Shown: positions 8,968-55,561, numbered from the stretch's first letter. The stretch is 64,000 nucleotides of DNA from Gammaproteobacteria bacterium (GCA_030429735.1 JAUIET010000011.1:81591-145590), one strand, 5' to 3'. Program-made: numbers and translations. The notes: generated by a model not told the origin, from the sequence alone.

Positions 8968-10175
8968 TTACGCGGCCCTGGTTCCCGGTTCGACGTAGAC
9001 GCCCACAACTGCGAGCACCACACTGACACAGGCGTAGCATGCACCCAATAAGGCCAGTAAATTGAAGCTAACGCCCAGATCCAGGCAAAGACCAATTATC
9101 ACCGGGGACAATGCAGAGGCGAGCACCATGATTGCCGACGTTGCAGACTTTATTGAACCAATGTTGGCAGTGCCGTAAAGCTCGGCGTAAAAAGGGCTCA
9201 ATGCGGTACCCAGCATACCGGTGCTGATTGACATCAGAATAAGAAAAGCACCGGCCGACCACGGTGCCGAGAAACTGGCCAGGAAAAACAGAGCGAAGGC
9301 CAATGGCAGGGGTAACCACGGCACAATACGCTCAGCGCCGAATGTATCGATGAGACGACCACAGAGCAGTGCGGCGACCATTGACGTTACGCCATACACG
9401 ATAAACCAGTTGCCCCAGTCCTGCAGCGACCACTGCTTGAACTCAACCAGCGCAATTTGATGAAAAATGAACCCCGTGAACAAAAGCGCGCCTGAAGAGG
9501 CTGCCGGTAAAAACAAGTAAAACCGTGCATCTCTCAACACCTCACTGCGGCTCCAGTCGGGTCTGGTATTGGGCTGATTCGCATGCTCGAGTGAGCGCAG
9601 GTATTGCGTGTGTCTGAACGTGTGACCACGTAACAAGAACATTACTAATGGTGCAAGGAAGACGATCAGAATGAGCGCCACGAACAGCAGTACTGACTGC
9701 CAGGAAAACAGCAGCATGGAAGCGATAACGATGGCCGGCAGCAATGCTTCACCGGCTCGATAGCCCATGCCGCTTAGCGCATTCGCGGTGCCGCGCTAAT
9801 ATACCTGACCATAGTTGTTCCGGCAGACATCACCATCAGCCCCTGGCCGAACTGTCGAAGCAGGAAAAACGCAACCAGCAATGTTAACACGTTGCTGCCG
9901 TAGGCCAGGGCGGCGCATCCGGTCGCGAGACCGGCAATCACAATTTGCGAAAAGACTCTTAGGTCGAGACGATCGATCAAGGTACCCGTCCAGACTACGG
10001 CTACCGCACTCAGTAGAGTAGCGGCCGAATAAACCGCACTGAATTCAGCGTGACTGAGGTTTAGGTGCTGACGCAAATCAGCGCTGAAATAGGCAATAAA
10101 AAAAGTCTGGCCAGGTGACGAGAACAGCGTCATCAAAAAGCCGAAAGCCAGCAATCGCCACTCTTTGCTTAACAT
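8968..10175 (-). pseudogene. MFS transporter interrupted by a frameshift (1-nt deletion near 9795)
   Basis: Two hydrophobic ORFs (9774-10175 and 8968-9768) are the N- and C-terminal parts of one MFS protein. The upstream frame ends ...TTMVRYISAAPRMR*. The -1 frame reads RGTANALSGMGYRAGEALLP, the conserved loop motif of this transporter type. Restoring one C in agc(c)gcggc would join them. Confidence 0.7.
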
Positions 10176-10184
10176 GCGAACTCA

Positions 10185-10477
10185 CTAGGGCAGCTCTGAA
10201 AAATACCCAATGCCTCTGCGCGGCCTGTAGCGTGCCGTGATGAGGCGCGTTCCGAAGGCCAGTGCTGGTCGCCTAAAGCGCCTACTGTTGGTGTCCCTGG
10301 CGAGGAGCGCAACGAAGTCACGGTGCGCTACAGGCCGCGCCCTCCGGGGCTTACAGGCGAATCCAGCCTTTTCGTTGCGAGTTTTTGGCGTACGGCCAGT
10401 ATGCCTGCAAACTCGCGCCTCAATGCTGGATTCGCCTGTATGCCAGAGGCATCGGGTATTTTTCAGAGCTGCCCTAG
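10185..10477. mobile_element. MITE-like non-autonomous element (293 bp incl. flanking TA; 31-bp TIRs, nested internal inverted repeats)
   Basis: Left end: ctaGGGCAGCTCTGAAAAATACCCAATGCCTCTG (10185-10218). Right end: CAGAGGCATCGGGTATTTTTCAGAGCTGCCCtag (10444-10477). TIR match is 30/31, and TA flanks both ends. Internal inverted repeats: GCGCGGCCTGTAGCG/CGCTACAGGCCGCGC, ACAGGCGAATCCAGC/GCTGGATTCGCCTGT and GCGAGTTT/AAACTCGC. There is no credible ORF. Confidence 0.65.
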
Positions 10478-10770
10478 ATGTTCCTGAGTAGATAAGAGTA
10501 GCTAAAGCCAGCCCAGGTACTGGCGCGCATAACGTGCCCGGGCTTTTCAATAAAGGTCTTATCCAGGAAGTCATTAACCTGGTTCCAGTCGTTAGAATAG
10601 TATGGGTGGCCCTTCAACGCGATTGGGTGCAGATAGTTATCTTCACGTTTGAGAACCTGCACTTGTATAACGCCATCGCGCAACTGCATTGCCAGCGCGT
10701 ATGTGTTTTCGGGGCTTATCCCCTCAATCGCATTGCGAACGCCCGAGATATCTTGGTCGGTAAATTGCAT
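10474..10770 (-). CDS. hypothetical protein (98 aa)
   Basis: ORF MQFTDQDISGVRNAIEGISPENTYALAMQL... has a non-repetitive, protein-like composition. Its stop codon TAG lies on the MITE terminal CTAG. No family was recognised. Confidence 0.45.
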   Translation of the reverse strand: MQFTDQDISGVRNAIEGISPENTYALAMQLRDGVIQVQVLKREDNYLHPIALKGHPYYSNDWNQVNDFLDKTFIEKPGHVMRASTWAGFSYSYLLRNI

Positions 10771-11054
10771 CGTTTAAGCCTGTGTTACCCAAAATCCAAA
10801 GTGCCGGGTAAACTGGGTTTTATCGCAGCTTACCAGAGGCCCATAAGGTTCCACGGAGGCGTGAGCCTCGAACAAAGCAGGTCTAAACAACGCCGCGCTG
10901 GCAACATCGGATGCTTTGAACTCCATCCAGCCATGATTATGCCATAGATAGAAGAGCCAAGGTGTGCAAACTCGACCATTGGAGTTTGTTGGCGACAGAC
11001 AGCGGTTTCCGGAGCGTGTGCTGGACGCTAAGTGCTAGCGGTAGTACCGTTCAT

Positions 11055-11801
11055 TCAGTCAGAACCGTCGCGGCGCACCATTGGGCTGAACAGTCCGTAT
11101 TTCCAGGACCGCATCGCCATCACCACCGTTACGCCGTGGCGCTCGCTCAGGCTGAGAGAAGCGTCTTCATTGTTCAACTCGTCAAACTCGCGGATTAAAC
11201 GCATTAGCTTGCGCTGGAATTCGGCATTGGAATTGTTGGACAGCATGCCGTTCAGAACAAGCAGCCGCTCACCGTCTCGATCAAACCGGGTGCGAAAGTA
11301 CTCCCTGCCAATTTTATCCTGAAAGAAGCGCTGGATAGGGCCGTTATCTCGCCATGCAAAATTAGGGGCAATCAGCAGCTTGATTCGATTTTTAGGCAGC
11401 AACTCAATGATTTTAAGCTTGTCGAGCAGCGCGAGTTTTTGAATGCAGTCAGTTTCGCTGATCTTGTAATAGCTGCAAATGTCTTCCAGCGTCCAGCGAT
11501 TTAATGCGCAGATGGTGACCAGTAACAACTCGAGGTCATCGGCGATCTGTTGCTCTTTTTCAACATCAAGTTGTTGCAGCAATGGCGAGCGTTCGTGCAT
11601 TTGCTGAACCAGGTCAGAAATTTCCATGCCCAGCATCGAGCAGGTTTGTTCCAACCGCTGCAAAGTGAAGCTATTGTCTGAAAACAGGCGTTTGACGCTG
11701 GCTTCGGACAATTGCAAGGTTTCAGCGACGTCTGCGTAGGTTTTACCATGCGCTTTTAGGGCTGATTTTAAGGTCTGAATAAGAGGTTTAACCTGAGCCA
11801 T
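11055..11801 (-). CDS. XRE-family helix-turn-helix transcriptional regulator with ~180-aa C-terminal domain
   Basis: HTH segment KTYADVAETLQLSEASVKRLFSDNSFTLQRLEQTCSMLGMEISDL. The ATG at 11801 (MAQVKPLIQTLK) is preferred because AAGGTG lies 8 nt upstream. The ORF-track start at 11924 adds an implausible N-terminal extension. Confidence 0.75.
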   Translation of the reverse strand: MAQVKPLIQTLKSALKAHGKTYADVAETLQLSEASVKRLFSDNSFTLQRLEQTCSMLGMEISDLVQQMHERSPLLQQLDVEKEQQIADDLELLLVTICALNRWTLEDICSYYKISETDCIQKLALLDKLKIIELLPKNRIKLLIAPNFAWRDNGPIQRFFQDKIGREYFRTRFDRDGERLLVLNGMLSNNSNAEFQRKLMRLIREFDELNNEDASLSLSERHGVTVVMAMRSWKYGLFSPMVRRDGSD

Positions 11802-11939
11802 GATAAGCACACCTTGATAGTTGGTATTATATTTTAATACTTTACGGTCAATGAAATGCAACTTGGCGATAAAAGGTTTTATTGTGTGTTCGTGCGCTTG
11901 ATACTGCTGCTTCACAGTAAGCATCAGGTAAAGCGATCA

Positions 11940-12287
11940 ATGACTCAGAATAAAAGCAATAACTCTGCAGAGAACACCCGCGCTGTTGTGCGCGCCGCAA
12001 TTCGAGATTGTAGATCGAGCAGTGTGCAAGCCCGCATTCGCAGGACACGCGTTGAGCGTAATATCGCGAACCTTCGCTACCAGCAGCGCTGGGCACGGGA
12101 TGCTGATGAGGCGAAGCGCATTGAAGCGAAATTGCTGCAGAACCTGCAACTCTGCGAAAGGGTGCTTAGAAACCTGGCTGACGCTGAAACGCAGCTACAA
12201 GCACTGTTAAAAATGGACAGAGAATTGCAGATAGGGATTCGAGCTGATTTGGTAGCGAGCGACGGTCTTCGGCCGGCTCTAAACTAA
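11940..12287 (+). CDS. hypothetical Arg-rich coiled-coil protein (115 aa)
   Basis: The ORF from the ATG at 11940 reads MTQNKSNNSAENTRAVVRAAIRD... It is divergent from the XRE regulator. Heptad-like, charged sequence. No family was recognised. Confidence 0.4.
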   Translation: MTQNKSNNSAENTRAVVRAAIRDCRSSSVQARIRRTRVERNIANLRYQQRWARDADEAKRIEAKLLQNLQLCERVLRNLADAETQLQALLKMDRELQIGIRADLVASDGLRPALN

Positions 12288-45034: not shown

Positions 45035-45095
45035 CGGCGGAGCCAAATACGAAAAAAGGCCGCTAGTGCGACCTTTTTTCGTATTTGGCTCCGCC
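45035..45095. terminator. long perfect hairpin / bidirectional rho-independent terminator overlapping the 3' end of tRNA-Asn
   Basis: GGCGGAGCCAAATACGAAAAAAGG (45035-58) pairs with CCTTTTTTCGTATTTGGCTCCGCC (45072-95). The inner CGC/GCG pair extends the stem. A/T6 runs on both arms give T-tracts in either orientation. Confidence 0.6.
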
Positions 45096-45161
45096 TGCTG
45101 GGCTCGAACCAGCGACCCAATGATTAACAGTCATTTGCTCTACCAACTGAGCTAAGGCGGA
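45086..45161 (-). tRNA. tRNA-Asn (anticodon GTT)
   Basis: The reverse complement folds by hand into a cloverleaf: TCCGCCT-TA-GCTC-AGTTGGTA-GAGC-A-AATGA-CTGTTAA-TCATT-GGGTC-GCTGG-TTCGAGC-CCAGC-AGGCGGA-G-CCA. 76 nt. Confidence 0.9.
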
Positions 45162-47554: not shown

Positions 47555-47631
47555 ACGACCGTAGCTCAGTTGGTTAGAGCACCACCTTGACATGGTGGGG
47601 GTCGGTGGTTCGAATCCACTCGGTCGTACCA
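47555..47631 (+). tRNA. tRNA-Val (anticodon GAC)
   Basis: Cloverleaf: ACGACCG-TA-GCTC-AGTTGGTTA-GAGC-A-CCACC-TTGACAT-GGTGG-GGGTC-GGTGG-TTCGAAT-CCACT-CGGTCGT-A-CCA. The body is nearly identical to the E. coli tRNA-Val(GAC) as recalled. It lies 90 nt upstream of thrS. Confidence 0.9.
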
Positions 47632-55484: not shown

Positions 55485-55561
55485 CGGGGCGTAGCGCAGC
55501 TTGGTAGCGCACCACACTGGGGGTGTGGTGGTCGCAGGTTCAAATCCTGCCGTCCCGACCA
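55485..55561 (+). tRNA. tRNA-Pro (anticodon GGG)
   Basis: Cloverleaf: CGGGGCG-TA-GCGC-AGCTTGGTA-GCGC-A-CCACA-CTGGGGG-TGTGG-TGGTC-GCAGG-TTCAAAT-CCTGC-CGTCCCG-A-CCA. 77 nt. Confidence 0.9.

Follow-up and report, generated by a model that had tools for sequence, protein, structure and literature searches.

A CTAG-flanked MITE at the stop codon of a small ORF upstream of a split MFS gene in an uncultured marine gammaproteobacterium

The 64,000-nucleotide stretch of DNA analysed here (the window; JAUIET010000011.1:81591-145590) belongs to an uncultured marine gammaproteobacterium. Its PdxJ protein has a best match of 79% identity in the collection searched, and the named relatives are MAGs labelled Pseudomonadales, Spongiibacteraceae, Porticoccaceae, SAR92 and BD1-7. 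The minus strand carries a 98-aa ORF and, downstream of it, an MFS transporter gene that is split into two ORFs, and a non-coding element lies between them (Table 1). As stated in the original prediction, this element lies at the TAG that terminates the 98-aa ORF and parts that ORF from the MFS gene, the minus-strand junction reading AAC ATC TAG, followed by the element and then by TGA GTT CGC ATG. The upstream ORF keeps its stop codon, and the MFS ATG at position 10175 lies 9 nt from the left CTAG and ~290 nt from the upstream stop.

Table 1. Features at the insertion site, with positions counted from the first nucleotide of the window.
Feature	Position	Strand	Remarks
MFS transporter gene, split	8968-10175	-	ORFs of 133 aa and 266 aa; 7-nt deletion at ~9789-9795
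Left CTAG	10185-10188	.	4-bp target duplication (IS5 reading), or c plus TA duplication plus first G of the element (IS630 reading)
MITE body, TA reading	10188-10474		287 bp
MITE body, non-coding	10189-10473	.	285 bp if the duplication is 4 bp
Left terminal inverted repeat	10188-10218	+	GGGCAGCTCTGAAAAATACCCAATGCCTCTG
Internal hairpin A	10218-10340		arms 10218-10240 and 10318-10340, 23 nt, 91% complementary
Internal hairpin B	10348-10444		arms 10348-10370 and 10422-10444, 23 nt, 91% complementary
Right terminal inverted repeat	10444-10474	-	30/31 complementary to the left repeat; G replaces A at position 22
Right CTAG, second target copy	10474-10477		minus-strand TAG terminates the 98-aa ORF
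98-aa ORF	10474-10770	-	no Pfam match

The two ends of the element read ...cacTA/GGGCAGCTCTGAAAAATACCCAATGCCTCTG...CAGAGGCATCGGGTATTTTTCAGAGCTGCCC/TAgat... in the window (slashes mark the borders), which is the cacTA/GGGCAG...CTGCCC/TAgat arrangement described at first, and the 31-nt terminal inverted repeats, matching at 30 of 31 positions, were confirmed. With the flanking CTA and TAG included, a repeat finder reports an inverted repeat of 34 nt that is 97% complementary (10185-10218 paired with 10444-10477). The 21-nt end GGGCAGCTCTGAAAAATACCC occurs at exactly two sites in the 64-kb window when up to three mismatches are allowed, and at none in 100 shuffles. The length was originally given as 289 bp and is 287 bp if TA is duplicated or 285 bp if CTAG is duplicated. 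The interior has no credible ORF, as had been noted: no ORF fully within the element exceeds 31 aa, the overlapping ORFs (129, 84 and 54 aa) are not retained in the other copies described below, and the longest internal ORFs across the copies are 31-47 aa, none of them conserved between copies.

The interior had been described as three nested inverted repeats. However, hairpins A and B stand side by side within the terminal stem, and the structure is a three-way junction rather than a nested series. The predicted fold of the minus-strand RNA has an energy of -184.8 kcal/mol, compared with a shuffle mean of -106.9 ± 4.7 (z = -16.5; 0 of 200 shuffles). No promoter-like site was found in the element, and no classical terminator was found in it on the strand of the 98-aa and MFS genes; the lone terminator-like match (10440-10452) is on the plus strand, opposite both genes, and the count is near the shuffle expectation. 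A search of Rfam returned no family for the element, either over positions 9000-12000 with E-values of 1 or below accepted or over the entire window at the gathering score. The sole Rfam matches in the window are three tRNA genes (45089-45161, 47555-47628 and 55485-55558), which are unrelated to the element.

Homologues of the 98-aa protein are 77-85% identical to it and 100 aa long, and in several uncultured relatives the small ORF follows an HTH_26 regulator and directly precedes the MFS gene. Three such loci (L010, L011 and L012) consist of PdxJ, the HTH_26 regulator, the small ORF, the MFS gene (408-413 aa) and SLT/LysM, and at a fourth (L013) the small ORF is followed by a downstream ORF; all four are without the element. 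Nucleotide homology between L010 and the window is broken exactly at 10176-10496. A fifth locus (L014) comes from a closer relative, whose 98-aa protein falls in the same 90% cluster; here the ORF ends AAT ATA TAG at the same codon, and the element is again missing. The TAG stop shared by the window and L014 corresponds to a Gln codon in the 100-aa forms. As L014 has TAG at this codon without the element, the stop codon predates the insertion.

If the insertion was simple, the junction before it would have read ...AACATCTAGTGAGTTCGCATG..., and the reconstruction offered at first, TAGTGAGTTCGCATG with a 9-nt spacer, would be sound for an event of that kind. The comparison with orthologous loci agrees with the original prediction in that relatives without the element exist, but the exact uninterrupted junction was absent from them, the empty-site relatives being only 70-77% identical to the window in DNA and including no exact empty allele. 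The closest sequences, those with an identical 98-aa protein, all contain the insertion. The description of the two genes as a formerly coupled pair holds in part: they are adjacent and on the same strand in the relatives, but the gap from the stop codon to the downstream ATG in L010-L013 is 27-33 nt, not 9 nt, and the protein there is 100 aa long.

Further copies were sought by searching one genome per species with the exact 21-mer end; the pattern used in the genome scan started with GGG and was biased against ends at targets finishing in A. Seven were found, at unrelated loci on four contigs of the MAG 'Gammaproteobacteria bacterium Co_bin.231', which was the sole other organism recovered. 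None of these loci is the window locus, and the flanking genes differ. All eight copies, including a partial one (L005), show cTA/GGGCAG on the left, and the Co_bin.231 copies are bounded by cTA/GGGCAG...CTGCCC/TAg, with TA at both ends in every case. Four of the Co_bin.231 copies are 265 bp long and mutually 97.7-99.2% identical. The window copy, in which the loop of hairpin A is 22 nt longer through an insertion not present in Co_bin.231, is 80% identical to these four overall, and the terminal 31 nt are 93-100% identical. The ends are thus far better conserved than the interior, as recognition by a transposase predicts.

Contigs from the Logan assemblies that carry an identical 98-aa ORF were found for samples ERR3428547 and SRR33397860. 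These contigs, and the ERR3428547 contig with a fragment of the MFS gene, all end 24-26 nt inside the terminal repeat. Other copies of the repeat in the source genome would be expected to cause breaks at this point, and the contig ends thus point indirectly to further copies in the source organism. The element is present in multiple copies at unrelated loci, its ends are conserved, its CTAG flanks are constant, it has no coding capacity and it is absent from orthologous loci. It is a MITE, as was originally predicted. As such, it is a non-autonomous DNA transposon of a small family in uncultured marine gammaproteobacteria.

The remaining Co_bin.231 copies are a 161-bp variant, a 178-bp variant and a 36-nt end fragment. 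The 161-bp variant (L002:3914-4074) contains hairpin A only, is bordered at left and right by the A-type end (CCCAATGCC), and forms a near-perfect palindrome, and the 178-bp variant (L001:2301-2478) is a full copy minus most of hairpin A. The family is modular, and the full-length form may be a chimera of two simpler elements. The fragment (L005:7819-7863, contig JAUIHW010000002.1) is a B-side end piece (GGCAG...GGCTTCC) with CTAG on both sides. Provided that the two 8-kb tiles are contiguous, it lies ~250 nt upstream of the full L003 copy. This fragment may be the remnant of a deletion or a micro-copy that arose from a pseudo-end inside the element (GGAAGC, read on the opposite strand). Hairpin A of the Co_bin.231 copies also contains a CTAG (GTGGCTAGGCG) that is missing from the window copy.

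A search for an autonomous element with matching ends gave none in the 64-kb window, in one genome per species (exact 21-mer), or in JGI metagenomes, viral contigs or plasmids. Three matches to a 20-mer in the JGI metagenomes, one and the same unrelated coding sequence, were set aside as chance, as were matches of the 39-nt end to plasmids, which were found only at E = 2-6. None of nine 17-mer matches in viral contigs had CTAG flanks or extended similarity, and BLAST of the whole 293-bp region against plasmids gave no match. MAGs often lose insertion sequences in assembly.

The original prediction assigned the element to the IS630/Tc1-mariner type because of its TA flanks. However, X-c-TA-(GGGCAG...CTGCCC)-TA-g-Y and X-CTAG-(GGCAG...CTGCC)-CTAG-Y are the same string and have the same empty site. 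As CTAG is palindromic, the flanks cannot separate a 2-bp duplication of TA from a 4-bp duplication of CTAG, and each of the eight copies, although consistent with CTAG/GGCAG...CTGCC/CTAG, would have the same sequence after a duplication of TA. All eight are at CTAG, and none was seen at TTAG, CTAA or TTAA.

The ends of the element were compared with those of known insertion sequences in both registers. Read from GGCAG, the end (GGCAGCTCTGAAAAATAC) matches the ISPsy2 end at 15 of 18 positions and the P. stutzeri MITE end at 15 of 18, the MITEPsy1 end at 14 of 18, and the ends of IS5 and a Burkholderia IS5-like element at 10-12 of 18. Read from GGGCAG, it matches IS5-group ends at only 5-8 of 18 positions. 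In the TA register, 3 of 18 positions match the ends of IS630, which is present in pSS_046 as two copies of the form cTA/AATAGCTGCGC...GCGCAGCTATT/TAg; this comparison covers only the prototype of a diverse family. The binomial chance of 15 matches in 18 is 3e-7 at a match rate of 0.25 and 4e-5 at a generous rate of 0.35. The likeness to IS5-group ends spans 15-18 nt only, the interior being unlike that of MITEPsy1.

MITEPsy1, whose end is GGAAGGTCTGAAAAAGCC, has been mobilised experimentally with a 4-nt duplication at the target 'CTAG or YTAA', and is thought to derive from ISPsy2; the end of its homologue in P. stutzeri and gammaproteobacterium HdN1 is GGAAGCTCTGAAAAAGCC (PMC3189936). Copies of ISPsy2 on plasmids were sampled with the transposase query from the supplement of that paper. 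The ISPsy2 end GGAAACTCTGAAAAAGAC (primer at element position 1) was verified on two plasmids; the left end reads cCTAG/GGAAAC on plasmid L029, and a clean TTAG...TTAG duplication is present on plasmid LT969519. A Burkholderia IS5-family element reads CTAA/GGAAACTCTGCACAA...CATCC/CTAG. When E. coli IS5 InsH was the tblastn query against plasmids, IS5 and ISKpn26 saturated the matches, which were useless for assessing end diversity.

As judged by these end sequences, an IS5-group (ISPsy2-like) source of the transposase, with a 4-bp duplication of CTAG, is probably to be preferred over IS630. This preference is a qualified one, since the searches yielded neither a partner element nor a copy at a non-palindromic target. 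An IS5-family, IS5-group transposase acting in trans would have pasted the element into a CTAG target, and staggered cuts would have duplicated four bases to give CTAG/GGCAG...CTGCC/CTAG.

The alternative, in which the element is an IS630/Tc1-mariner-type MITE of 287 bp that starts at GGGCAG and only the TA of CTAG is duplicated, appears unlikely but has several features on its side. The cTA/.../TAg flanks of all eight copies follow the pattern of IS630 in pSS_046 (cTA/AATAGC...GCTATT/TAg), and terminal repeats of 31 nt are within the usual range of the IS630 family. IS5-group elements make a 4-bp duplication at YTAR, and strict specificity for CTAG fits IS630 better than this looser target. 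The same pattern is found in the literature, with IS630 inserting into the TA of CTAG according to the title of Tenzen and Ohtsubo (1991), as cited in PMC2170065. Against this stand the match of 3 of 18 positions in the TA register as opposed to 15 of 18 to ISPsy2 in the CTAG register, a comparison with the IS630 prototype, and the result that neither the window nor one genome per species, JGI metagenomes or viral contigs yielded an IS630-family transposase with matching ends.

The closest known system is MITEPsy1/ISPsy2 of P. syringae (IS5 family, IS5 group). MITEPsy1 and the window element are both of the non-coding MITE type with terminal inverted repeats and insertion at CTAG, and the ends start GG.AG.TCTGAAAAA. 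However, the window element is 285 bp long, whereas MITEPsy1 is 100 bp, and their interiors are unrelated. The terminal repeats are 31 nt compared with 18 nt, two internal hairpins are present here, the window family is seen at CTAG only and not at YTAA, and its host belongs to an uncultured marine lineage. As the likeness is confined to the terminal nucleotides and BLAST of the 293-bp region against plasmids gave no match, the element does not belong to the MITEPsy1 family itself. A MITEPsy1-like sequence of 99 nt, which shares 83% identity with that of P. stutzeri, was observed unannotated in at least 770 PLSDB plasmids, the hosts being mostly Klebsiella, Citrobacter, Escherichia and Pseudomonas (for example NZ_CP022275.1:84304-84402).

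IS630 of Shigella sonnei and the MITEs derived from it resemble the window element in the CTAG target and in the cTA/element/TAg flanks, but the end of the window element is unrelated to that of IS630 (TA register). Elements of this kind are mobilised in trans if they have no transposase gene. Correia elements (Neisseria), ERIC/IRU (enterobacteria) and RUP (Streptococcus pneumoniae) are likewise small, intergenic, hairpin-forming repeats that are present in multiple copies without a transposase of their own and are co-transcribed with neighbouring genes. The window element appears to have no sequence similarity to them and matches no Rfam family, its ends differ, and it forms a three-way junction rather than a single hairpin.

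Five of the seven complete copies directly adjoin the end of an ORF that uses the TAG of the flanking CTAG as its stop codon, a pattern that is new in this analysis. These ORFs are 98 aa in the window, 326 aa at L001 (luciferase-like monooxygenase), 163 aa at L002 (full-length acetolactate synthase small subunit), 438 aa at L003 and 317 aa at L007. The tetranucleotide CTAG is itself ~six-fold under-represented, with 74 sites in the 120 kb formed by the window (1-64000) and L001-L007 where ~469 are expected. Elements account for 21 of the 74, and the 53 free sites comprise 30 in genes, 16 that are intergenic and seven at stop codons, so that stop codons make up 7 of the 23 free sites at which an insertion would be tolerated. 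The probability of at least five of seven insertions at stop codons is 7e-4 relative to all sites and 0.03 relative to the tolerated sites, values that come from seven copies and crude ORF-based gene models. A literature search combining CTAG, stop codon and MITE returned only an unrelated paper on CTAG methylation in haloarchaea.

TAG is read within CTAG on both strands and would be regenerated by the duplication, and an insertion at a C-TAG stop would therefore spare the upstream protein and survive. Depletion of CTAG together with selection against insertions within genes can explain why five of seven copies are at stop codons, and regeneration of TAG followed by survival is the simplest explanation of the excess. 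The numbers leave room for a weak additional preference for stop codons or for selective retention there.

Selective retention would take on a further meaning if the MITE has been co-opted, the RNA of the three-way junction being kept past stop codons as a 3' or intercistronic module that stabilises the mRNA, serves as an RNase III processing site or uncouples genes. Such roles have been reported for ERIC, REP and Correia elements. This appears improbable for the present family. The excess at stop codons over the tolerated free sites is what co-option would predict, and the structure is conserved: a consensus three-way junction of 99 pairs was obtained from the alignment of the five full-length copies, in which four pairs are compensatory (changed on both sides yet still paired) and most of the others are invariant. 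This pairing pattern fits upkeep of the hairpins, although with only two diverged lineages it would say little about a function of the RNA, and palindromes stay paired without selection on RNA. Moreover, the sample is small and the gene models crude, purifying selection alone may give the enrichment, the 98-99% identity of the Co_bin.231 copies argues for recent spread rather than long retention, and the downstream gene at the window locus is broken, not regulated. If co-option were true, the CTAG target and the regenerated TAG would amount to a built-in means of delivering the module to the ends of genes that stay undamaged.

A native structured intergenic regulatory RNA or REP-like host element that is not mobile is largely refuted and very improbable: the fold is very strong, and the three-way junction is kept between the window and Co_bin.231 despite 20% divergence and with the compensatory pairs noted above, but the element is absent from all five related loci examined, copies are found beside unrelated genes at seven unrelated loci, the ends are much better conserved than the interior, and neither an Rfam match nor a promoter-like or classical terminator-like site on the gene strand was found.

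Returning to the favoured interpretation, a MITE mobilised by an IS5-group transposase, the insertion has moved the 98-aa gene and the MFS gene apart by ~290 bp of sequence that pairs strongly with itself. Expression of the downstream gene was likely weakened, both by the loss of close translational linkage and by long double-stranded RNA in the transcript. The original prediction held further that the element replaces the ribosome-binding region of the MFS gene; the relatives have no obvious Shine-Dalgarno sequence close to the MFS ATG, and this part is therefore unsupported. The frameshift in the MFS gene, also reported at first, is real. It is due to a 7-nt deletion relative to three orthologues, which is the single lesion in a gene that is otherwise 74-83% identical to the intact orthologues. 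A separate Logan assembly shows this frameshift as well (contig ERR3428547_21420), and it is reported for two samples, and its recurrence in a Logan contig makes an assembler artefact unlikely. We infer that the long double-stranded RNA and the lost proximity would reduce MFS expression, and the inactivating frameshift may have come after this loss of expression.

The anatomy and the history of the locus set out in the original prediction are largely right, and its superfamily assignment is probably wrong. The element is a genuine but ordinary MITE of a known kind, and the points to carry forward are the stop-codon pattern and the ambiguity between TA and CTAG. With the palindromic target CTAG, assignment to a superfamily needs the end sequences or the transposase, as the flanks do not suffice. 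The family was previously undescribed, occurs in poorly sampled marine gammaproteobacterial MAGs, and has ends at which short-read assemblies break. With CTAG as its target, the transposon lands for the most part on TAG stop codons, as in five of the seven complete copies, and the stop is regenerated on insertion; hairpin-forming DNA is thereby brought between the genes of an operon at little cost to the gene upstream.
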